Below are positions 6,522 through 35,606 of a DNA stretch of 64,000 nt, one piece after another (position 1 is the stretch's first letter; each line of letters opens with the position of its first letter). The stretch is from Saccostrea cucullata (taxonomy: Eukaryota). The stretch lies in the NCBI RefSeq assembly GCF_032062105.1, contig NW_026918275.1, forward strand, positions 1 to 64,000. The letters run 5' to 3'. A program made the position numbers and the translations under genes. The notes under the pieces were generated by a model. That model did not search any database and was not told where the DNA came from. It worked only from the letters and a program-made list of their open reading frames with translations.

Positions 6522-9500
6522 GGACCTGCTACAGATACGCAAGTCGTAAAATGGGGACATAAAAAACATTGGGGACTTGATTTAAGTCCCCAAACTTTTT
6601 TATCGTTGAAAACGAAAAATTGACATGTCTAAATCCTAAAAATATCAAAAAAATAACGTGTCCCAGTTACGGGGTTTTATCGGACACATGATTACACAGA
6701 TATCGTGTTGATTGAAATTGCCATCTTCACTTACACATCTCTGACGTTACACACTTCTAGATTACGCATGCGCGTGTGTAAAAAAAGCGGAAGTCCAATT
6801 GTTTCGAAGCGGGATACAATAAACATGTGGAAAAGAAGACACAGAGGAAAGCCTGGACACAGAATCCTAGATTCTTTTGATAAAGATGATTTTTATGCTG
6901 AAAACGGTATGTTATCTACTTCTTGGATAAAATATGGTGCGAGGAACATGCATCAAAGTATTGAAGGGGGGAGGGGGGCAGTGACGATTGCTGCATAGGC
7001 CTATCGGGTACTCAGTTGAAATGAAAAGACAGTTATTTATGTGATTTTCTTTCTTGAAATAGTACACAATTTATGCTATTCATTTCACAATGATTAAAAA
7101 TTCATCAAATGAAAGGTATATTAATCGAATGTGTTTTGTATTTCATGTCAACATGAAATGACCTTTTAATACTAAGTTTTAACTCAATTTAACTGAACTA
7201 AATCCAGTCCACTTTAAATGTAGTTTGTATGTGTGAGTTTTTTTTGAGCCAATAATGAGATCGGATTGTACCAATCCCTCCCCCCTTTCTTCTTGAGATC
7301 TGCAACTTATTGTTTTTAAAGCCAAACCTAAGAGCGGGTTGTACCAAACACCTCAACAACCCACCCCCTTCTTCTTGAGCCCAGCAACCTATTTCTGGTG
7401 TTGTTTTCTTTTCATTTTTAAAGCAAAAAGTGAGATCGGATTGTACCCCCCCCCCCCACCCCCTTTTACTTGAGAGAGAACATAAAGTGTAGTTATCAAT
7501 TCAACATTTATTTTACTTGTCCTATAATATATAGACATTACTTAATACAATAATAGCCTATTTCAATTTTACTCAAAATGCACTTATTAGGCCCCTATTT
7601 ACTGCTAAAGAGCAAATAATTGAAGATCAAGTATATATTGTTTTCATGTTGTTTATATTATAGAAACTTGGGCTGAAGCATCTTTAAATTTAAAAAGCTC
7701 CCACATTACTTATATGAAAGTACAATTCATTAAGTGACAATTATATTTTCCACATTTTTTTTTAATTATTATCATTTTACAGCATTCTTTTTAAAAAAAA
7801 AATCACATTTGATCTCTCTAAGGGCCTGTACGTGTTATGGGCATTGGAATAAAAATGCTCAGAAAGAAAATATGGATAAAAACGTACGTCTTGAACAAAT
7901 TTTATTAACGAATTTTTTTTTCTTCATATAATTATTATCCTTAAACATGTTAAAAGATATAGAATTAAACTAGAATATAAAAATCATGCAAACTTGTGTT
8001 TATTAGATTTTTTTTATCAGGTCATTATATCCTAAAGCAGGACATTATACCCCTGTCGTTTTTATTATGTCCAATAAAAAGTTTATATATTTTATTTTGC
8101 ATTTTGCTACGATTCTTATAGAAGATAACAATATTTATTATTTCCAATAAAAATGATATTGTGTATGCACCAAAATTGACAAAAAACTATTTATTATAAT
8201 CAGTCAGGACATTGTACTATAAGGGCATTATACACTTCCGGTGTAAACAGCTTACTCAGGAACTGAGGAAGCAGGTAAGGCATGGTTTGGACTGAAAAAA
8301 AAAACACGTCCTTGTTTGATTCCTTGAAACGATTGTGTAATTATGTTCTGGAGACTTGAAGTCTGTACAAAGACACACTACATCAAAGTAGTTTCATGTC
8401 GACCGCTTTATACCTGATCATCCTGATCATGGATAAGCCTTTCCGAATTCCCTCGGTTTAATTCTCATTTCACTGTTAGTGTGTTTGTTTATATATACAA
8501 ACAGCTTTTAAATTGAATTTTTAAGAGTTCATTATAATTGTATTTTATATGATATGATCTTTTTTAAAACAGTGTGCAATGTATTTAATTTTTGTATCCT
8601 TTCTATCAGAAAGTCATAGGCTATAATAAGAATCATTTGACTTGTTTAATGTATTGTGGTATATTAAGTTTATTTATGTATTCTCAAATTATTTCATTTC
8701 GATCCCGATGTAAATTATCTTGCTTATATTTGGAAACACCCACTTTTATGCGACCATCAGATCGGGGAGGAACTGGCTTAATTCTCTATAGTTACACTCT
8801 TCACATACTAGGCTTTTTGTCCATCTGTTTATATTGCTTTTATAGTTTACACTCTTCACATATTTTGGTTGGGGGTAAATCATCTTTTTGTCCATCTGTT
8901 TATATTGCTTTTATAGTTTATATTTGGGTTAGACTATATTTTGGTTGGGGGTAAATTATGTCAAAAGTGTAACGTAACATTTTAAGCAATTATCAGATAA
9001 ATTAATAAATCCATTTAAAAAAAAAAGTTTTTAATCCATCAGAAAAGAATTTATAGATCTATTGCAGGTAGCAATACATATTTTTCAAAAAAAAAAAAAA
9101 AAGAAAGAAAGGCAAGAAAAAAGAATAAAAGAGAAATTAGAGATATTTATTTATAGAAAAAGAGGCACTATCTGTCTTTCAAATTATTTTACGTCTTATT
9201 GTTTCTATTCAAATTTTGTTCAGAATATCGTTAAAATCCAGTCTTTTATAAAATCAATTCCACAATTCTTCCCTAAGAAAATATTGGAAACAAAAATTTT
9301 CAGTATTATCAGTTAACATTTTAATACACAGTTAGAATAGTTAAGAATATTTGATGAAGGAAAGCGATCTAAGTGACATTGATCTAAAGAAAAAGTTCAT
9401 CACAACAAAATTTCCTGTATAAATATCGATAAACATCAACAACAACAACAACAACAACAACAAAAAAAAAAACAATTTTTGAACAAAATAAATAAAGATA

Positions 9501-10682
9501 TATAGAACATTTATGAATATCTCCTTTTATAATTTATAGAATTTAAGCACAGAATATATATCAAAAGACTCACACCCCCGTTATATTTGAAATACTTTAA
9601 ATCCAATATGATAACTTATTAAATTAATAAGTCTGTTTTATATACCAATATATACAAATTAATTTGATCAAAATGACCATGAAAGTATAACATGTGATTT
9701 AATTTTTCCAGAGATTTTCTGCGTACATTCATTTCATTTAAGTGATGGAATCATAGTTAAGAATCATCCAAAATCATCACAACAAACACTGTATAATTCA
9801 TCCTGAAACAATTTTTCAAGTCCTAATCAAAGTGACCGTATTGAATAAGTACCCGTATATATACTAAATGAAAAGGAAATATAAACAAAAGACCGTTCCT
9901 AATGAGATAGTGAACAAACTATTCTAAAGTGACCGGGAGTTATATAAATACTGCAGAATATTAAATAAACAAATAAAATAATATATTTAGAAAAAGACTG
10001 ACTTTAAAATACATAACATGTACATCGTAGTACATTATAGCAGTTTTCTGTAAGACTTGTAATAAGTTTGTAAAGTCGGAATACCAATATTGACCTCATA
10101 GAATAATTTGACACCTACATGTAGTATCGCGAGTACCTCACAGATATATAAATTCTTACTACCGCTCTTTTGCAAGGGAGTAGAGAAGGCTCTAAATCGC
10201 ACAATTTAGATATCTGGGGTATAACAATGTTTACACTAGACAATCGAATGATTCAAACAACCATTATGCCAAAAGTACAGTGAATTGCCAAGGATTGAAA
10301 TCTAAATAGTACAAATGTAGCTAGATTATCAAATAAGGAAAGTTAAAGTATTAATGAACTTTCAAAAGTAATGATGTTCAATGAGAATTTAATGAGAAAA
10401 GTCTGCTCTAAAGAGAAAAGTAATTGTTAAAAATGTAACATATGAGGATAAGCCATTACAAGGAAGTTTTTGATTATGCAAGAACAATAACGTCATGTTT
10501 CTGCATACTAAGTCTTCAGTTTCAGAGAGTAGTGGTATGGATTCAGAAAACCACAGTGTGGTGATCCGGAAAGTTTGAATGTCACGCTAACTTGCTCAAA
10601 AGTCAAATATTATATTTTTATTACACGCTTAGTAATAAATACAGGTTTTTTGCATATGCAATATGGCTGACGTCACAATAGC

Positions 10683-10775
10683 TGTATCAGCCCTGCAGGG
10701 CTGATATGGATTTGCGGGGCTGATAACCTATATCAGCCCTGCAAATCCATATCAGACCTGCAGGGCCTCAATATC
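10683..10775. repeat. Short palindromic (hairpin) element
   Basis: TATCAGCCCTGCAGGGCTGATATGGATTTGC...GCAAATCCATATCAGACCTGCAGGGC is self-complementary. Confidence 0.7.
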
Positions 10776-11853
10776 ACACCCTTAATAAATTAAACCACAA
10801 AAACAGTACTTGTGATCATACACAGTTTTTGGTGGGTTCATATTCTTGTAATTTTAACTTTTTGAAAATAAATTTAATCTTAATTTACAAATACATATAT
10901 TTACATTCGCTGTGTTTTTCTACTAAGCCAACTGTGAAATTGATTTGAAAATCATTTTCGTGTATACTCACGCCTAGAAATATACACGGAGAAACGTGCG
11001 TTACTGTGACGTCAATTTTTAGTAAAAGTATATCAATATAGGGCAGCGATAAATTCAAATATTGAGTATATTTTCGATGATTCCAAACATGTAAAATGTA
11101 AATATAAGGAATGTTTTTAAGTTTAGTGTGAATTTTGGTGAACAACTTGCACGTATGCATATTTGCTAGCTTCATGAAATATGCCTACGTGACAAGTCTG
11201 TGTATTCACAACCAATACCTCACACAAAACTTAAAAACATTCCTTAAGTAATAGATTATTTTCAAATTACGGATGGAGTGCATTGAAATAGAAGTAGAAA
11301 CAAACCCAAATCGTGTGAGACAATAGACCATGTACATGTAGTATGTTAGTTTACTGAGGCCGAAGGCGATTTAAAAGTCAGCCAATTTATTCATTGTTAT
11401 TAAATGTTGAATTTCCAAATGTTTGACAAGTTTGTTCTTGTCTCCAACAAATGTATACACTCATGATTTAAAGCATAGTGTAATAACACATTATGATTAG
11501 TGTTGGCAAATCAGACGATTTTTATTAAGCGGTTACTCACTTCATCTTCCGATTGAGTACCCGGTTACTCGGATGATTTTTGGTAAAAGCATCAATATCT
11601 ATTATTTATCTTATTGTATACTTATCGGTGGTAGTAATGCACAAATATACTGTATATGGACATTATATTTACAATACACACATATGATATCGTCAAAGAT
11701 TTACTGTTTTAAAATAAAGAAATAAGGAAGTCGACACACGGAGAAGACAAATAAATATGTCATTGTCAATCACCATTTTACACTTTCCTTTTCAGCCCCT
11801 GAAATATGTCGCAATCAAGGAGAATAATTATTTACATACTCCATAATTAATAG

Positions 11854-12165
11854 CATAGGCATCGTAACCGGGGGGCTAGAAGGGAAACAAACCCAAATCG
11901 TATTCCCCCCCCCCCAGTATTTTTTTCCAAATATATACATAGTATAGACATTGATCATATCTTCGTGAGTTTAGCCCCCCCACTTTCCACAGATACGTCC
12001 TACATGTAGTATAGGTTAAAATTGGTAAAAGTGTTGGTGTTTGGAAGAAAATTTTTGGTACTGGAATTCGAACCTTTTTTTTGCTTGTCAGATTTTTTTG
12101 GAGGTACAAAAAAAAAATTTCTTACACTTAGCCCCCCCACTTTCAATTTGCTTCCGACGCCAATG
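11854..12165. mobile_element. MITE, probably hAT-like
   Basis: TIRs CATAGGCATCGTAA and TTCCGACGCCAATG; AATAG on both flanks; internal poly-C/G tracts. Confidence 0.6.
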
Positions 12166-14503
12166 AATAGTCAGTATGTGGAGTTTCCAGTAAATCGCTG
12201 GTTTCCGAATATTTTAAGATTAGGTGATTTAACAGATTTTGAATCAGCTGTTCTTCTGGTAAACTCCAAGCTTATTATGTCTGCGACAGCATCTTGTTAA
12301 ATTATCAAATGAGGTAATTATAATTCAGGTCTTCAAAAGATATATACCCCAGCAGATCAAAGCTATCAATTATATAAACTGTGAAAACTAATCAAAACAG
12401 TTTGATCCACTACAACCATGCACTAGATCAAGTCTAATGGTATCTAAAATTAGGGAAATGTGTAATTTAGTATACCGGTACATTTATAAATTATTAAACA
12501 TTTATTTCTATGCCTTTACTATGGAGAATTCATTTTATCCAAGCAACCGAATAGCAGTTTTACTAACCGATACTCACATCGTTCGACAGTTAACCAGTTA
12601 ACTGGGAACACGGATATTGCCAACACTTAGATTTATGATTGTAATTTATCAGCTACTATATATTTTAAAAGTGGAAAAAATATTATTAAACAATAGATAC
12701 TCAACTATTTACTAAGAAAGTAGTTTAGTGCATTGGTATCTAGCATGGTAACATTTGCAATGACACATGTTTTAAAACGCCCAATTTGATTGGTCAAAAA
12801 ATGTTAGCAAATCTATGGTTGGTCAACATGGTCAAGAGGGAAAACCCAAAAACCTCCTAGAACTTTAATTTGAAGTGAACTCACTCTGAGGTACACCCCA
12901 AAATGCCCAAGGAAAAGGTGTCTAGTCCAACCAGAGAGCACCCTAATCCCTGATCATTTAATTTCTATGCTTCTTGTATAGGAATGGGAACTCAATAGTA
13001 TTACAAACTTTTACTTTGAGAATAAAATTGATAAATTTCTGTATAAAAATGCTTTTACAACATGTATTAAAGATTTGTTCCTACTTTTAAAAAAATTCCA
13101 ATACATTCTGAATTTAATTTATAATTTTTTTTGTTAGAATGTTCAAGGCAACCAGAAGCTTGAGTCCATCCTGAACATAGAGACAACACAGATATTAGCC
13201 AAGCTAGATATTGCTAGAGGATTAGTCAACAATTCAGCAAGGACTAGTGATGGATATGTTCCAGGTTCCACAGCTAGGAGAATGTCAGGAAGAAAAGCCT
13301 CATCATTAAAAGTGTTACAGGTGAATTATTTAGGAATTTAAAAAAATAAATAGGATAGATAAAGATTCACCAGGGAATGAATTTTTTGTTGGTTCATGAT
13401 CACATCTATTGAGAAGCCAAAGGCAAAAGTATTGCATGCAGTAAATATTGTTTGGATGTAATCACACTTATATCATTGTATATAAATAACCTTTATCCGT
13501 ATTGATAAATATTTTGAATTTATTTCAGATAATATAAATCTAAATTCATTACTTTGTCAAATTATATTTTCGTTTCCAATGTCTTTGTTCAAGAGACAAT
13601 TACAAATAGTCAAATGAATGCACTTTATTTCTCCATCAATATACTGGTTCATTGATAGGCGCTGCTAAAAAAAAAATCACGTGCAGGGCGGAACAAAAAT
13701 AGACAGACAGTAGAAGCAGGGCTTGTAGCAAAATTTTTATTGGCCCCGAAAAAATCATATATATATATCTTTTTATAATATAATACAAGAACTTTTAACT
13801 GTCATTTTCAATTTCATGACATTTTAATGTTAATAGTTACTAGCTAGTTCCTGTTGCTTGCATGTTATAATAACTTTATGCTTTTTATTTTATATAAATG
13901 AAATTTCTGCAGTTAAAATATATTATGACTGTGTATGATTTTTATCACAAGCCCAACCAATTTTTATTTTGATCACATCATCAAAATTCATCGGAAAAAT
14001 AAGACAGTTATTTCTTAAATAACATTTTTATTCATTTATTTAATACATGTTGTATGAATTTTGCCAGCATCTTCAGATGGTGAAATGTCAAGCAAAAAGT
14101 GCATTCCAAGCCCTCAAGAAGTTGTGTCAAGCCCTAGTCGTAAAGGCATTCCAGATCTAAAGAGTAGAAATGGACCTATATGTATGGTTTTATTGATGAA
14201 AATATGCCATGCCCCAGTGACAAAGGTGAACCAGTTTCTAAAAATGGAGATGAAGCTTGACCCTGGAAAGAAAGCATGTCTGTCTCTAATGATAGAGATG
14301 TGACTTTATCCAGGGACTGAGATCTGCAAGTTCTAAATGAAGGAGATTTGCCAGGTGCTGATATTACTGATATCCTACATGTGGGTCCCATCTGCTCAAG
14401 GTTCCAATAGTGAAAAATCTTGGTTAGGAATGAAGTGTCATCAGGTATTGCTTCTATCAAGAATCTTCTTTCTTTAGAATTAATAAAATTAAAGCTTAAA
14501 TTA

Positions 14504-26000: not shown

Positions 26001-28228
26001 TGTAAGTCCCCAAACTTGTACCCTGTGTATTAGGTCCTCAGTTTACATATATACCTTATCTTGTGTGTAAGAAGTCCCCAAACTTAGTTCCATGTGTATT
26101 AGGTCCTCAGTTTATATATATACCTTATCTTGTGTGTAAGTCCCCAAACTTGTACCCTGTGTATTAGGTCCTCAGTTTACATATATACCTTATCTTGTGT
26201 GTAAGAAGTCCCCAAACTTGTACCCTGTGTATTAGGTCCTCAGTTTACATATATACCTTATCTTGTGTGTAAGTCCCCAAACTTGTACCCTGTGTATTAA
26301 GTCCTCAGTTTATATATATACCTTATCTTGTGTGTAAGTCCCCAAACTTAGTTCCCTGTGTATTAGGTCCTCAGTTTACATATATACCTTATCTTGTGTG
26401 TAAGAAGTCCCCAAACTTAGTTCCCTGTGTATTAGGTCCTCAGTTTATATATATACCTTATCTTGTGTGTAAGAAGTCCCCAAACTTGTACCCTGTGTAT
26501 TAGGTCCTCAGTTTACATATATACCTTATCTTGTGTGTAAGTCCCCAAACTTGTACCCTGTGTATTAGGTCCTCAGTTTATATATATACATTATCTTGTG
26601 TGTAAGAAGTCCCCAAACTTGTACCCTGTGTATTAAGTCCTCAGTTTATATATATACCTTATCTTGTGTGTAAGTCCCCAAACTTAGTTCCATGTGTAGT
26701 CCTCAGTTTATATATATAAGTCCTCAGTTTATATATATACCTTATCTTGTGTGTAAGTCCCCAAACTTAGTACCCTGTGTATTAGGTCCTCAGTTTATAT
26801 ATATACCTTATCTTGTGTGTGTCCCCAAACTTGTACCCTGTGTATTAGGTCCTCAGTTTACATATATACCTTATCTTGTGTGTAAGTCCCCAAACTTGTA
26901 CCCTGTGTATTAGGTCCTCAGTTTATATATATACCTTATCTTGTGTGTAAGTCCCCAAACTTGTACCCTGTGTATTAGGTCCTCAGTTTACATATATACC
27001 TTATCTTGTGTGTAAGAAGTCCCCAAACTTGTACCCTGTGTATTAGGTCCTCAGTTTACATATATACCTTATCTTGTGTGTAAGTCCCCAAACTTGTACC
27101 CTGTGTATTAGGTCCTCAGTTCTTGTGTGTAAGTCCCCAAACTTGTACCCTGTGCATTAGGTCCTCAGTTTACATATATACCTTATCTTGTGTGTAAGTC
27201 CCCAAACTTAGTTCCCTGTGTATTAGGTCCTCAGTTTATATATGTACCTTATCTTGTGTGTAAGAAGTCCCCAAACTTGTACCCTGTGTATTAGGTCCTC
27301 AGTTTATATATATACCTTATCTTGTGTGTAAGTCCCCAAACTTGTACCCTGTGTATTAGGTCCTCAGTTTATATATATACATTATCTTGTGTGTAAGAAG
27401 TCCCCAAACTTGTACCCTGTGTATTAAGTCCTCAGTTTACATATACCTTATCTTGTGTGTAAGTCCCCAAACTTGTACCCTGTGTATTAGGTCCTCAGTT
27501 TATATATATACATTATCTTGTGTGTAAGAAGTCCTCAAACTTGTACCCTGTGTATTAGGTCCTCAGTTTATATATATACCTTATCTTGTGTGTAAGTCCC
27601 CAAACTTAGTTCCATGTGTGTTAAGTCCTCAGTTTATATATATACCTTATCTTGTGTGTAAGTCCCCAAACTTAGTTCCATGTGTATTAGGTCCTCAGTT
27701 TACATATATACCTTATCTTGTGTGTAAGAAGTCCCCAAACTTGTACCCTGTGTATTAGGTCCTCAGTTTACATATATACCTTATCTTGTGTGTAAGTCCC
27801 AGTTTATATATATAACTTGTACCCTGTGTATTAGGTCCTCAGTTTATATATATACCTTATCTTGTGTGTAAGTCCCCAAACTTGTACCCTGTGTATTAGG
27901 TCCTCAGTTTACATATATACCTTATCTTGTGTGTAAGAAGTCCCCAAACTTGTACCCTGTGTATTAGGTCCTCAGTTTACATATATACCTTATCTTGTGT
28001 GTAAGTCCCCAAACTTGTACCCTGTGTATTAGGTCCTCAGTTTATATATATACATTATCTTGTGTGTAAGAAGTCCCCAAACTTGTACCCTGTGTATTAG
28101 GTCCTCAGTTTACATATATACCTTATCTTGTGTGTAAGTCCCCAAACTTGTACCCTGTGTATTAGGTCCTCAGTTTATATATATACCTTATCTTGTGTGT
28201 AAGTCCCTTTACTTGTACCCTGTGTATT
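26001..28228 (+). repeat. Satellite array, 65-bp unit (variants to ~69 bp), roughly 33-34 copies
   Basis: Unit GTAAGTCCCCAAACTTGTACCCTGTGTATTAGGTCCTCAGTTTACATATATACCTTATCTTGTGT; period 65 (26882 to 26947). Confidence 0.97.
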
Positions 28229-28852
28229 CATGTCGAATCATGTCGAACAAAATTGCTGCGTTTGCTCTCAAGAACATCTTTTTGTAATAGTACTATTGTG
28301 GCAAGGCCGTTACTAGGCTTAAATTTTTAGTGAGGCAAGGGATCTGGAGGCAACCAGGATAATTCTCAGGGGGGGGGGGGGGTGAAACCCGTATTTTCAG
28401 GCAATGAAAGACAATCTTTTTTTTTTTTTTTTACATTTTGAATTATATTTTTTTTTACATGCTTTCAACACGATAATGAAGCACCTGGTGATATGATCGA
28501 TTTACAGAAAAGGAAACAAAAGTTTAAAATCTTAATTTTGTTTAAAGATCGAAACACATAATTAATTTAAGTGCACTTTCAGAAAACTCTTAAAATTTTA
28601 GTGAGGGATTTGCCTCAGTCAGTGGTACTTACGACATATGTGGCAGAGATACTGCAGAAAAGATCGATGCAGTTCATTCCTCGGGAAAATGTGCATTGTT
28701 GACTAGTACTAAAGCGATACATGAAAAGAAAAAAAAAACAAAAAAAACAAAACAAAACAAAAAAAATCTTCACGCAAGTAGCAATCGATCGCAACGGATA
28801 TTCCTAAGCCTTTTCTAATGTCTGAAATATTGGCCTATAGATCAAAGCAGAT

Positions 28853-29392
28853 ATCTTCTTCTTCCCATTCAATACAAACCATTTAAGTATTATCGCATTC
28901 TGCATTAGGGGTGAGTGTCTATATACAGTGCTCGTTAAAATTAAAAAAATAAAAGATATTAAAAGCGCAGTTGTGATTTCTACTAGAGATTGGCACTGGA
29001 CAGCTGGGTCTTAAAGCTGTTCAGGGTCTTGGCATCAACTGTTCTTCCTGGTAATGAGTTCCACAGCCGGATGGCTAAGGAGGAGAAGGAGGTCTTGTAC
29101 ACTTCTGTTCTGGTGTGTGGTAGCAGGAATCGCAGGGTGTGGCCTCTGGTTCTCAGTGATGGATGTAGGTAGCTCTCCGCCGGGATGTCCAAAAGATGGT
29201 AGACTATCCTGTATAGCATGTTGTCTGGGACTCTTTCCCGACGGATCTGTAGTGACTGCCATTGGAGCTGCTGAAGTATGAATGTTACGCTGCTTCTTTT
29301 TTGGTAATATCCAATTGCGAATCTGTCTGTCCTACGCTGTACGTACCGCCTCGATCTTCTTGATGCCCTCCTTCTTGGCCGGGGACATATTC
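28853..29392 (-). mobile_element. 5'-truncated CR1/L2-type LINE (RT C-terminus, 3'UTR, GAA tail)
   Basis: MLYRIVYHLLDIP...RTRGH...YKTSFSSLAIRLWNSLP...LNSFK, ending in GAAGAAGAAGA. Confidence 0.85.
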
Positions 29393-29591
29393 GATGGTAG
29401 ATCGTACAAGTGTAAATATCAATGTAAATTTACATTTAATTTGCGAAGTGCAACCCCCTTCCCCCTCCTTTTAAAAATCACATGTTTTTAAAGTTGTAAT
29501 TAAGTAGGATGTCTTGGATTTGGTATTTAATTAGGATAAAAAAATTATGCTACATGTACCTCTCCCTGCGTAGCAAGTAGGCTAGCTTTGC

Positions 29592-29730
29592 AAGTGGCGG
29601 ATCCAGGAATCTTGAAAGGGGGGCAACAAGTTTGGGGTCGGTGCCCAAAGCCACACACAAAAAATGATTTATTAAATCTTATGTATATCTAGACTCAAAA
29701 GCCCCCCCCCCCCCCTCTAAATCCGCCAGT
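29592..29730. mobile_element. Short MITE
   Basis: AGTGGCGGAT...ATCCGCCAGT imperfect inverted ends with G/C tracts. Confidence 0.5.
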
Positions 29731-30179
29731 ATTTGCATACAAGATAGTAGCTTTACGTAGAGGCTAAGTAGCGGCTACGATCTTGAACGCACTCTGTCAA
29801 CTGTCTTATTGCATAAAATTACGACTGTTTATAACGAGCATTTGATGGACAGTGCTTCCCATTTCAGATTTTGTGTACAAGTTTTGTTGCAGGAAAGACA
29901 GTGACTTGATCAAAGTCTAAAATACATTTGAAGCAGTGGCATAGCGCCCTTTACGCAACAACACAAATGAATACACAGATTTTTTAAAAAAGAAAATTAA
30001 AATAATAATAGTAATAATAAAAAAAACATGTCGAAAGTTCAATAACGGATTAACATAATTAGGTTATTTTATAAAATCTAGATTGTTTTTATCCATACGT
30101 ACGAAATATAATATTTTCAGCTTCAACCTAAGATCTTTGAAACAGTGTATAATTATATCGTTTTAGAAACTTTTTTAAA

Positions 30180-30680
30180 AAGGAATCACTGTCTAGTTTG
30201 GAGAGTATGCCAGGGCATCAACAATAGTGGGAAACATGGGATAATTTTAGCATAACGGGCTTCGCCCCCTATGCTAAAATAAACCCATGTTTCCCACTTA
30301 TTGTTGATGTCTCTGGCATACTCTCCAAACTAGACAGTGATTCCTTATATTTCCATTTCATTGTGAAATAAAATTGAAGACTTAGACATTTAAAATGTAG
30401 ACTAATAGATTTAAATTACACAAGGACTTCCATGCCAATTTCCATAGTCCTCGCACACTGACGTCAAACACAAAGGCAGCCGCACGAGATTTACATGCAT
30501 ATTTTGCCTTCCTTAGCGTCAGACACAGAGACAGATGCGCATGAGATTTGCATGCGTATTAGGCCTCCTTAGCTGCTGACCTATCGACCTGCCTAATTTA
30601 CATTCCGGCAGAATTATCAAGAAATAATCTCCCCCAACTTTCAAACAGATATTACAGAGAAAAATGGAAATATTAGAATA
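30180..30680 (+). mobile_element. Hairpin-headed non-autonomous element (Crypton-type candidate)
   Basis: Near-perfect hairpin 30180-30346 (AAGGAATCACTGTCTAGTTTGGAGAGTATGCCAG...CTGGCATACTCTCCAAACTAGACAGTGATTCCTT). Then ATATTTCCAT at ~30347 and its inverse ATGGAAATAT at 30664. Confidence 0.7.
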
Positions 30681-31072
30681 ACAATGACGATCGAATTTCA
30701 GATATAACTGTATCCATTCAAAGCAAAAGCAAATAATAAACGATGCTTTTTACTAATTCCCCTAATAATCACCTAAATTAACTGCGTTGTACTAGCACTA
30801 TAATTTTAAACAATGAATTTTAAAATGTAGCAGCATTTTCAATGAAAAATATTCATAAGTTTAGTGAATATACCAGTGTATAGATTTTTTTTTTTTTTTT
30901 TTTTTTTTGCATTTATGAAAAACCTACGAAAGCCCATTGAGGCCAGTTCAGAGAAAGAAATATTTTTAATGCGTTTAAATGCAATGATTTTAGCGATTAA
31001 ACGCAATAATTATTGAGTTATTAACTGTGAAATTTTCGCCTTTTTAAAGATAATTTTAAATTATTTTTACAG

Positions 31073-31374
31073 GCTTGTATATTTTCCTTCAATCATCTAT
31101 CCCTTCATCGTCTCAAGCCACGGTCCGGAGTCCGTATATAGCTCTTTCCAGAATGGGAGAGGATCGTACATTTTGGCCGTGGTTTGAGACGATGCTATCC
31201 CTTATGCATGCCCATTATCTTGATATAAGAAACACTCAAAAAAGATCAATTCGTAACAATCCAGTGTACAGTTGTCAGTCAGATGGAACAAACCTAAGAA
31301 AAAAGCTCACTTTCTCCGAGGACAAGAACAACTCACTCTGTGTTACTCGATACAAGTATTCTCTGCAGCATTGA
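31073..31374 (+). CDS. Candidate terminal exon with a STAT-linker-like motif
   Basis: TTTTTACAG acceptor, then an open frame containing TFWPWFETMLSLMHAHYL, ending TGA. Confidence 0.35.
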
Positions 31375-34300
31375 GCGGCGATGAATTTCAATTGTATGTA
31401 TTCCTTAGAATTTAATCACATTGCTTTTATTCCATTTGTGCTACTGGTGCTTGTCTGGGTTACATGTAGTGTGTTACGTATTGCTTGAATTATTTGAGCT
31501 TAATATATTTAGAATAAGCTATATGTACTTTTGCTCTAGGTCAATGTTCTAATTTTGAAAAAAGTAGGGCTACATCTATCACTATCAGTATTGTACTCCC
31601 TTGGATTTCATTTAGGCCTATGTAATTTGCTCACATTAATGGTATGTTTTTATTATATCCACGGAAATATGTTGTAAAATAAATAGACTAGACAAAAGAA
31701 TAGCATTTCATAAACAGTAGATATTACCACAAAGTACAATGAGTAGTAAAGAAAATATCAGTTTCTAGTACATGTATTACGTTTGGAGATAAAAAGTTCA
31801 GAATAATAATGAAAGTGAAATAAAGATTTATGAAAAACAAATTGTAACATATATGTATTCAGCCTAATGTGACAAATCGGAACGGAAATCGACAAGCTTT
31901 CTGTAAAGAAAAAAACAAGCCCGGCCGGATAGGTCAGGTCCCTATTTATATTGAACTTTTCAACGCCATTTTGCGATAGTATGATAGAGTTTTCCCGCGT
32001 TTCGTAGAATAGCGGGAAAGCATTGTATGATAGAAACGTATTTTATTGGAAATGCCTGTTTATGGTAGGCGTGGCCAAAGGAAGACCAATGAGAAGGCGT
32101 TATTTTGTGAGGTGTTGGATCATTCCAAGCCAGTGCTCCGCAGAACACACACGTGTTTTTTATATTTATATTCAAATGAATACGTTTCTATAAATAATAT
32201 TACAACAATATTGTCATATTATTTGATTTTGCTTTATTATACATGTACATATATGGTGTTTCTGCATACCATGTACTGCTCCGAATGCATGTTCGGCATT
32301 CTCCCTTGAGGCATTATTTATACATAGCGACGTGCACATGTTTTCCATAGTTACTCGTCTATGTTTTTTTTTCTGGGCGGTTTTTAATGTCTTTAATAGG
32401 GGTACAATGCATAGCATGTAACTTATAGTTACATAATGTAACCATTGCAGTTCTTCATTGATCACATACACATTAGTGTATGACTGTTTGTTATGGATTG
32501 TTAGTTAAAGAGATATATGCCGTATTAGTGTTTTATTTTAAAAGAAATAAATGTATAGGTGGTGTCTCATCAAGTCGTAACGGTAAAAGTTATATACTTT
32601 CTGCAAATAAGACTATTCCACTCCATCACTTTTAAAAGTTATGAAATATTATTAGGTAAAAATTATTTTCTCTCCGAGACGGATAATAAACCGCCTCTTA
32701 TTGAAATATTCATGATCACGTGGTTTCGCATGCTCACAGCAAACAATGGTCCAATCTCGTGAATGAACCGAAAAGCATAATGGTCTACTACGTTTTTACT
32801 ACAAACACGTGAGTTAGGGATTGTTAATACGTGAGCACACCTCAGAGTTGGTTGCTTTTTGTACCGAGGAATAATCACGTGCAATTGTCTTTTCACTAGC
32901 AGTACAGCACGGTGAAACTCGAAACAAACGGACCTGTACAATGGAGTGGGGAAAACTTTAATCTTTATCATTGTTAATCATTTGTAGGCAAATATGAGCA
33001 TGGGATTAGTAGATAATAAATGTACATAATGTATTAAGCATGTAAATGCTTGGGAAAATGCATCAAGTCTTTCCGAGAGCGATTTTAAAAAACTAGCCTT
33101 TTCGAAAAACACATGTAGAATTTTATGTAGTAACCCATAAATGCATTAAATGCAACTCATTGAGCTGATTGGTATATTTGTCAGTCATATTGGTTCCTCA
33201 CTGATCAGACGTCACAAAAATATTTTCCTCGACCTGATTTTTCTCGCGATGCTTTTCCCGCGCACACGCGCAGATCCAGGATAAACGGTCAGTCCTTTAT
33301 AAATATGCATGAGAATATCGTGTTCTTTTCCGGACCAGTACTTTTTTAATACCGAATAATATTTCGTCGAATTTTCAAGAATGCTTCAATTTTTGATAGC
33401 TTATCATAATTCAGAAATTTTTGTTCGGTTTCAGCTGTGCAAAAATACTGCTTAACACGGCACACATATCTTTAAGCTTACAGCTTAAGTGTTGTATTAT
33501 TTGTCTATTTTGAGGCAAAGTCTGTCAAATAATGTGTGAAGAATATACTTATATAAAGCTGCTACAATAAGGAAAACATATTTGAAAAATAAGCCAACTT
33601 TACACATATTATGTAATTTTGAATGTTTGATATGAGGAATATCATTTAAAATTGATCACATTAAAGCAAACACGTTCTTTCATGTAATACTAGCCTAAGT
33701 ACTTTGCATTTCTTATTATTATTTTCACACTGCATGTGAAAAAAATATCACTTATATTCAATGGACGAAATATATTGCAAGAATTCCACTGTTGACAATG
33801 ATGTATGTATTGTCTTAATTCATGAAAACAAGAAATGCTTTGTTAAAAGAGGATTTAGTGGAGTTGTAAGTTTTGTCAAAACTCAGCATTTTTTTTGTTA
33901 ATATTTAGTAGAACTACGATTGTATAAAGATAAAAAAAAATATTTCGAGTTAATTTTCTGATGTAAAAACCTGGAAATCCATGTGCTTACAGGGCTTCGC
34001 TATAAATGGTTTATCGAGTCACTGAGATTTTTTTTATATACATATAATAAAATAATTCCATGGTCATACATGCATAGTCAGGGAGATTTTGCTATAATTT
34101 ATAAAACTGATTCCTGGACTAAATCCGTTATTTTGCGTAAACGGGGGAGAAGGGATGTTGGCAGGTATAACATAATAGTGGTGCTGTGGAGCCGTAATAA
34201 AATGTAAAGGGTAAATTTAAGAAGCCGTTTTCCTTATGTATATATAGTGAAGCAAAAAAATGTCTTTTGAACACATCCACCTCATTCCTTTAAAAAAACG

Positions 34301-34826
34301 TAAACCCCACCAACAGCGCATAGAAATAGATTATTTATAAACGTTTGGGAAATGATATAACATGTTTTTTTTTCTTTTTTATTTTCATTTGTTATTGCTT
34401 ATTAAGGAATTTCTGGATTGGAAATTTTTGGACTAAGGATAACCCTTTCCCACATTGAGAAATCCCTGAATCCGCGCCGGAATAAATAAATAAATAAACA
34501 TGTCCAACCATCTTCCAAACTTAAATTTATAAATATGTCCCCATTTCTGTTCCTTGTGTATGAGGGACTGAGTAAAGGTCCCCAATTCTGTAAGCTTATG
34601 AGAAGTTGGGTCCCCTACCTTTACACAGAGGTCCCCATATTGGCACTTCCGGGTCCCCATTTTCTAAATTTATGAATATATCATTCTAGCTCAAAGACTC
34701 AGTTTATTTACTTATTCCAGGATACTTACGGGGTAAAATAAGTTAAACAATACCAATTCTGCCACGAAATCGCTTAGTCCCCATTTTAAGATTTTTTGGC
34801 AGGGTCCCCAGATCGAAGTCCAAAAG

Positions 34827-35606
34827 GATTTTTGATAATCAGTGTTACCTTAGTTCTCTACACATACGAGGTAAAGCAGGAGAGGGAACTAGACTGGCCT
34901 GTTTGTTTACATTCAGCTGCGGTACCAGATTAATTCTGATTCTGACAAAATCGGACCGTGGTATTAGGATTGAAAAACTCACTGTCAGTGTCTTATCATT
35001 TATATTGATAGTTTTAAAATATTTTTCATCAGAATATAAACGTGATTCATGTAAGAAATCCATTCTACTCTGTAAATGAGCCCGGCTCTCTGTACTTCTG
35101 AGTACTTTGATGTGATCCTGTTCAAGGCAGGATGTTGACCCCATAGTCGCCATTTTAAAGCTACGTGCAAAAATATAGTTCTTACTCTCAACCGCTTTTG
35201 AGATAATACAAACGCTAAATAAAGCAACAAAAATGAAACGAAGTTTCATCTATAGAAAATAAACAGTAGTATTGACTTTGAAAACTTCATACGTCAAAGA
35301 ACATAGTTCATAAGCGTAAAGATTTTTGATAATCAGTGTTACCGTAGTTCTCTACACATACGAGGTAAAGCAGGAGAGGGAACCAGACTGGCCTGTTTGT
35401 TTACATTCAGCTGCGGTACCAGATTTATTCTGATTCTGACAAAATCGGACCGTGGTACTAGGATTGAAAAACTCACTGTCAGTGTCTTATCATTTATATT
35501 GATAGTTTTAAAAAAAAATTTCATCAGAATATAAACGTGATTTATGTAAGAAATCCATTCTACTCTGTAAATGAGCCCGGCTCTCTGTACTTCTGAGTAC
35601 TTTGAT
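34827..35606. repeat. Direct duplication of ~285 bp (34827-35111 and 35321-35606)
   Basis: Both copies start GATTTTTGATAATCAGTGTTACC and end GTACTTTGAT, with few mismatches. Confidence 0.95.
34849..35153 (-). CDS. First coding exon of a BTB/POZ-like protein
   Basis: AAAATGGCG start context. LQSRMDFLHESRLYSD...ININDKTLTVSFSILIPRSDFVR resembles a BTB N-terminus (SD..I.V.DK.F.VHK.IL..RS.YFR). GTAAC donor. Confidence 0.45.

Follow-up and report, generated by a model that had tools for sequence, protein, structure and literature searches.

Comparison with described systems

DNA transposons moved by tyrosine recombinases are the closest described counterparts of an element found in Saccostrea cucullata, within a window of 64,000 nucleotides (NCBI RefSeq assembly GCF_032062105.1, contig NW_026918275.1, positions 1 to 64,000, forward strand). 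A 28-kb stretch of this window is one of about 45 genome copies of one mobile DNA element (family 1), which is interpreted here as a non-autonomous CryptonV-like element, likely mobilised by the tyrosine recombinase of a related element that carries both a SET domain and a recombinase. CryptonV is a tyrosine-recombinase lineage of DNA transposons, and some of its families are microsatellite-specific (PMC8869645, citing Kapitonov & Jurka 2012, Repbase Reports 12:2034). Of the described systems CryptonV is the best fit, by description only: insertion into microsatellites is shared, and the recombinase may be, one being absent from family 1 but present in a further family (family 3, below) with the same end geometry. 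Its mentions in the searchable papers say nothing of the 28-kb size, the SET fusion, the inverted subterminal motifs, the internal arrays or the junction 4-mers.

The Crypton A, F, I and S groups encode a recombinase only, with a proposed circular intermediate and non-autonomous derivatives (PMC3212892), and excision of an active CryptonF has been seen in Chlamydomonas (PMC9977147). These groups lack terminal inverted repeats (TIRs), possess matching direct repeats of 4-6 bp and excise cleanly (PMC3212892, PMC9977147), whereas family 1 has TRCGTG arms with inverted GGGGAC clusters, and the four nucleotides adjoining its two termini (N4) match in only 6 of 19 elements. The family-3 recombinase also gives no match to DUF3504, a feature of the CryptonA recombinase. 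The conjugative transposons Tn916, Tn1549 and CTnDOT also use a tyrosine recombinase, for which homology of the coupling sequences is unneeded, and form heteroduplexes (PMC5812530). Non-matching coupling sequences between sites would be the feature shared with family 1, an analogy drawn here from static junctions only; unlike family 1, these elements are bacterial, have AT-rich targets and carry Xis and conjugation genes, and the spacer in family 1 would be 4 nt. Endogenous nimaviruses resemble family 1 as large elements in simple repeats, placed there via a tyrosine recombinase as is proposed for family 1, with concatemers across the repeat, but are viral genomes of 278-401 kb in telomeres (PMC10871703), whereas family 1 yielded no viral gene. 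The literature search, with Repbase Reports and most subscription journals outside its reach, returned no description of microsatellite elements combining SET and recombinase, of Crypton coupling sequences, of scars or of arrays of end motifs, and Crypton is unmentioned in PMC10294476.

Genomic copies and ends of family 1

A sequence-only reading of the window had described imperfect inverted ends at 6522 and about 34810 with clustered GGGGAC/GTCCCC motifs and two satellite arrays between them, and all the strings that it cited are found where it placed them. More specifically, GGACCTGC is present at 6522, and TAAAATGGGGAC lies at 6547 with its reverse complement at 34777. The terminal 300 bp contain the GGGGAC/GTCCCC motif 3 times on the left and 7 times on the right, whereas it appears only twice in the 23.6 kb of non-array interior. 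The motif clusters are thus located as described, but the true termini, judged from other copies, lie further out, the left one (5'-TGCGTG) about 25 bp leftward of 6522, beside a GT/CA microsatellite, and the right one near 34830. The visible part of the left end, with its motifs, spans 6522..6830 (+), and the right end, with seven GTCCCC motifs, occupies 34530..34823 (+). In the window copy the final ~7 bp of the right end, including the terminal CACGTA, are missing and the sequence runs into a duplication of 494-bp period; having lost its right terminus, this copy is probably immobile.

Exact terminal motifs are found 46 times (left, window counted) and 41 times (right) in the genome and never for the controls, and a scored end search gives at least 40 matches for each end. 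Eleven contigs were fetched for copy comparison, and in ten of them copies run from left end to right end in the same order as in the window, at mostly 90-99% identity; C21090 has a tandem pair, and C13524 adds a further copy beyond the fetched set. Twelve left-right pairs besides the window were recovered, nearly all with both satellites, and where both termini can be read a copy is 18.3-36.4 kb long. The pairing of ends at 18-36 kb in many contigs, with colinear interiors, bears out the proposal of one large DNA element and disposes of the alternative that two truncated relatives happen to lie near each other. Exon variants divide the copies into a younger group, which includes the window, and an older one. 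The mobile element family is real, and the window copy is a young, non-autonomous member of it. Much of the variable interior resembles nested small repeats, and the second C21090 copy contains a nested retrotransposon that is Gypsy-like by its motifs. On C19886 (L079-L080) inverted right halves of family 1 are present, with two right ends facing outward. Six looser matches to the end pattern and one more (L101-L107) were set aside as chance matches.

Insertion into GT/CA microsatellites

The flanks of family 1 are revealing of its target. A GT/CA run of at least 10 nt adjoins 24 of 29 distinct left flanks (17 GT, 7 CA) and 21 of 22 distinct right flanks (18 GT, 3 CA), for a combined 45 of 51 as compared with 26 of 20,000 random places (0.13%); some flanks are probably allelic duplicates (L012/L013, L031/L033), so that these counts are slightly inflated, a minor point against the reading. 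Microsatellite-specific insertion, a CryptonV feature, is thus found in family 1. Paralogues of the L009 site that lack the element (7 loci, some overlapping) contain a plain GT tract, so that the tract pre-dates the insertion. The element-free site L282 matches a family-1 left flank at 92% and a right flank at 84% (L141, L028).

A SET-domain gene and a candidate tyrosine recombinase

The window contains no long open reading frame (ORF), and none of 132 of its 187 ORFs of at least 45 aa (AT-rich-looking ones were dropped) scored above the curated Pfam cut-offs. Profile searches for a recombinase were equally empty, and the earlier reading had likewise recognised no transposase. RNA reads examined over 6522-17830 support GT-AG junctions from 13320 to 15593 and from 15695 to 16509 (76 and 103 reads in X21; 42 and 58 in X22), which define exon A (13141..13320, +), exon B (15593..15695, +; frameshifted in the window's subfamily) and, by read depth, a last exon or 3' untranslated region (16509..17350, +; end point approximate). 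These spliced reads come from related copies, mostly 90-95% alike, but the frames are short or broken.

A sister family (family 2, four loci), also in GT tracts, has about 290 bp of its left end in common with family 1 at 90%. In its gene, exon 1 occupies the corresponding position, a SET exon follows (E 1.3e-9), and an exon further downstream is a homologue of exon A of the window (DNA score 72, shuffle maximum 34). The window's exon 1 (6825..6909, +; MWKRRHRGKPGHR...), which agrees with the sister-family exon in place and splice donor, aligns with the N-terminus of the SET protein P0007 at a score of 51, reached by 1 of 2000 shuffles. On these homologies, exons 6825-6909 and 13141-13320 are what remains of a SET-domain gene belonging to the element itself, the SET part being lost, and thus are not cargo. 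The earlier description of the element as cargo-carrying is not sustained, as both assignable exons belong to its own gene. Exon D (23896..24191, +) consists of two exon-like segments, of which D2 is present only in family copies; exon D has 24 genome matches, mostly in family copies already known, and no host gene was recognised among them.

Among close SET relatives are proteins whose C-terminus bears a recombinase-like domain, both recombinase motifs being kept in 4 of the 13 proteins of at least 700 aa, and a genome search with this domain gave 38 matches. One of these, on contig C8085, falls within a 23.7-kb element of a further family (family 3), flanked by GT tracts. Its termini are TGCGTG and CACGTA, and the offsets of its first GGGGAC motifs (+23 and +21) are identical to those of family 1. 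Its interior contains SET exons, an array of 35-bp GTCCCC units and an open ORF of 726 codons. Among 82 sequences, 80-82 keep the candidate catalytic residues R193, K239, R314, H340 and Y349 (numbered in the modelled 394-aa part). The structure model has a pLDDT (predicted local distance difference test) of 88.8, and the eight best matches of its fold in the PDB (E at most 0.001) are XerH/XerA, followed by Cre, lambda Int and Tn1549 Int; because of these matches the modelled ORF is assigned as a tyrosine recombinase. PDB sequence searches with the C8085 protein returned no recombinase, and the fold search alone found one. Among 120 homologues listed, PF00589 occurs in 3 and SET in 2. The nearest named recombinase homologue is from Crassostrea virginica, which, with 166-bp arrays of a type known from oysters, points to an oyster-like bivalve as host, and close relatives are found in oyster, echinoderms and fish; we presume that the fish genes combining SET and recombinase are CryptonV members.

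Families 1 and 3 also meet in the genome. Paralogues of the L282 site are occupied by both, and the two share single tracts, family 3 following family 1 in C18941 and preceding it in C12080. There are 101 family-3 end matches in the genome. Most copies in 14 other family-3 contigs are 7-14 kb long, and no SET or recombinase match was found in any of these contigs. One family-3 copy (L313-L314, C6994) lies in a 22-bp minisatellite containing TGCG instead of a GT tract, and another (L306-L307, C5485) consists of inverted halves with two right ends facing outward. A recombinase relative with SET on C1728 (L230-L235) has a (GA)n flank, GGGGAC near its end and GAGGAC arrays, and other recombinase relatives (L211-L214, L229; C12469, C17595) possess many 44-bp arrays.

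Several observations weigh against assigning family 1 to this recombinase. Pfam does not recognise the C8085 ORF. The ORF is barely transcribed (depth at most 2 in three RNA runs). No family-1 recombinase was found by motif and profile search in six frames of the 11 contigs and the window (best E 3.1), nor was one found in the family-2 DNA fetched; the proposed link of family 1 to a recombinase is thus one of descent and end geometry. The ends of families 1 and 3 are alike only in the hexamer and GGGGAC, so that C8085 may not be the real helper of family 1. Even so, it is highly probable that family 1 is a recombinase-type element. The whole account, in which a non-autonomous transposon sited in (GT)n is moved by the recombinase of a related element, with the array and coupling steps set out below, we regard as probable.

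Internal arrays

Satellite 1 (17837..19304, +) consists of 22.8 units of 64 bp, and satellite 2 (26001..28228, +) of 33.5 units of 65-68 bp. The two units, each with GTCCCC and GTCCTC, are homologous (56 of 66 columns), which points to one origin. A 17-mer is common to the left end and satellite 1, and a 15-mer to the left end and satellite 2, lengths reached in 0 of 300 shuffles (maxima 13 and 14), in agreement with the earlier observation that the satellites carry the end motif; the right end shares only 10-mers with them, which is chance level. Co-occurrence of satellites and ends is likewise seen, with both arrays present in 9 of 9 single copies examined. Exact matches to satellite 2 number 172, and the 100 listed ones, on 16 contigs, are in every case followed downstream by a family right end of like orientation. 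In family 3, a 35-bp GTCCCC array of 5-12 units is found in 14 of 14 fetched contigs, most of which have nothing in common with C8085 beyond the two ends and the array.

The GGGGAC/GTCCCC motif is a putative protein-binding site. Retention of arrays in two lineages suggests a role in cis, perhaps as an enhancer for synapsis of distant ends, a proposal that we put somewhat below even chances. In such a role the internal GTCCCC arrays would probably be extra binding platforms that bring the distant ends together. Alternatively, in a recombinase-type microsatellite element the arrays may be passive, slippage having amplified a motif-bearing unit once per lineage, with inheritance thereafter. This explanation, which stands at nearly even chances, is favoured by the single origin of the two arrays, by array lengths that vary about 2-3-fold among family-1 copies and by the chance-level likeness of the right end. 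The C21090 pair points the same way, one of its copies keeping only satellite 2 and the second neither array. C16426, of which 30 kb were read, contains both arrays but no end, a point against the account as a whole. Descent from a single ancestor in each family accounts for the arrays nearly as well as function does. However, the family-3 unit is unrelated to that of family 1 save for the same motif in the same orientation, and short family-3 copies keep the array though little of the other interior is common with C8085. The array-less C21090 copy, moreover, may have moved within the tandem pair, which is flanked by (CA)n and has an identical N4 at its two outer termini.

Junction 4-mers and candidate excision scars

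The junctions of families 1 and 3 have the geometry [N4]TGCGTG...CACGTA[N4]. N4 is mostly TGTG, with AGGG at 15 of 86 junctions. Among elements with both termini readable (C14492, C17786 and C911, with eroded termini, and copies without ends being dropped), N4 is identical at the two ends in 6 of 19 and different in 13, and all four pairings of TGTG and AGGG are seen. Where the flank is (CA)n, N4 is of GT type, and so foreign to the target strand, at 7 of 11 junctions. The mismatched N4 and the GT-type N4 in (CA)n flanks together exclude a simple target site duplication (TSD).

These features are consistent with N4 being a coupling sequence exchanged without homology, as in Tn916, which by analogy we consider fairly likely. 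In the proposed mechanism, the recombinase would bind the TRCGTG arms, aided by the GGGGAC sites at +23 (left) and +21 (right), and excision would yield a circle in which the arms are joined via a 4-nt spacer from the two flanks, no match being needed. Recombination of the circle with a GT tract could take place in either orientation, after which resolution of the mismatch would leave the spacer (TGTG, AGGG, TGAG and others) on one side, both or neither. On a later excision the spacer would stay in the tract and interrupt it, for example as GTG-AGGG-TGT. The coupling-sequence model thus predicts scars in GT tracts, and the pattern (GT)4-GAGGG-(TG)4 occurs 475 times in the genome, as compared with 1 for the reversed control pattern. 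At 20 such AGGG-interrupted sites, hand-picked from the first 100 listed, an element end lies within 300 bp in none, and the flanks are mostly unrelated. The AGGG interruptions may therefore be excision scars.

Against this interpretation, the AGGG excess was judged against one control pattern only, and no circle junction was seen. Given its likeness to the telomere repeat, AGGG might also have arisen in some other way. Indeed, microsatellite mutation or telomerase-like repair might account for both the junction 4-mers and the AGGG interruptions, given that these tracts mutate fast, that TTAGGG/TGAGGG-like runs occur in some of them (L290, L295) and that excision is read from static junctions only. 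We consider this origin unlikely: it fits poorly with the 475 to 1 asymmetry for the same two substitutions, with the occupation by AGGG of the exact 4-nt slot adjoining both termini in two families, and with the GT-type 4-mers at (CA)n-flanked junctions. The most far-reaching form of the proposal, an animal transposon group that recombines like Tn916, with 4-nt couplings between (GT)n sites, hundreds of AGGG scars and arrays as enhancer, is possible though rather doubtful.

Other classes of transposon

Imperfect inverted ends, subterminal motif clusters and internal tandem arrays are typical of CACTA/EnSpm- or Mutator-like elements, and the sequence-only reading implied a TIR/TSD model of this DDE transposase kind. 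A cut-and-paste element whose TSD is hidden in the microsatellite would explain these structures. This explanation is largely refuted and now very improbable. The fixed-length TSD of EnSpm/CACTA, MuDR and Zator is a feature that family 1 lacks, and no consistent TSD was found among the 19 elements with both termini readable, N4 differing between the ends in the majority. Of the outcomes that the earlier reading had named as refuting its element, unpaired ends and unlinked satellites did not occur, but a consistent TSD is indeed nowhere to be seen. No DDE domain was found in the 132 window ORFs or in the end-sharing partner, although short exons may escape such a search, and the relative with the same end geometry encodes a tyrosine recombinase.

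Transposase-like ORFs near family-2 ends, RAG1-like and Mutator-like, were considered as helpers and rejected as not common to the family-2 loci, which also tells against a DDE element. A 1060-codon open ORF on C5986 (L127:8486 to L128:1665) with no Pfam match has motifs of RAG1-like/Chapaev-type transposases and is probably a separate element; a presumably Mutator-like transposase, so labelled by its motifs, is nested in the family-2 copy at L098 (C14038). A search of 70 kb of C5986 revealed no right end of family 2.

A rolling-circle element of Helentron type, its repeats lying at the centre, or a segmental duplication that merely has a short repeat of separate origin on either side, is extremely improbable despite the satellite arrays of oyster Helentrons (PMC7492417, PMC8268682) and a small hairpin in the left end, in view of the fixed inverted termini in unrelated flanks, the GT/CA target where Helentron/HINE elements, which have a subTIR and a 3' hairpin, insert at TT, the balanced end counts, the colinear interiors and the SET/recombinase kinship, no search for a Rep/helicase partner having been made.

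Additional features of the window and related loci

Within the element, the segment 13969-14560 is confined to the younger subfamily and contains an exon-like ORF with RNA depth up to ~27; a homologue search gave no result. Word-indexed protein searches with the 14058-14300 ORF and with the SET exon had no matches, which is weak evidence. An ORF at 28986-29429 (-) is fixed in most copies and is presumably the 3' end of a LINE (long interspersed nuclear element) reverse transcriptase. Outside the element, the window contains two blocks of 16/21-bp repeats 3 kb apart (37669-40940) and a GC-rich 5-kb stretch (42000-47000), likely other mobile elements. Elsewhere in the genome, tandem elements of 17-21 kb (L162-L167, L179-L180; C6302, C13018, C21039), some beside TTAGGG runs, possess a SET gene and an opposite-strand ORF of 933-944 aa with no convincing Pfam match, and one copy from this set is the target of a family-1 insertion.

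Significance

Family 1 belongs to a known but thinly described kind of element, CryptonV being named only in passing in the searchable literature. Microsatellite-targeting Cryptons are described almost solely in Repbase, and family 1 offers readable junctions, element-free sites and a candidate enzyme, which make the transposition chemistry directly testable. With relatives of the recombinase in oyster, echinoderms and fish, such a result would generalise. A recombinase able to place 28-36 kb in GT repeats would also be of interest for use in integration. If the scars are real, interruptions of microsatellites would arise in part from transposon excision. Should the arrays act as enhancers, there would be a functional reason for the satellites in some elements, and dispersed satellites may be working parts of them and not passengers.

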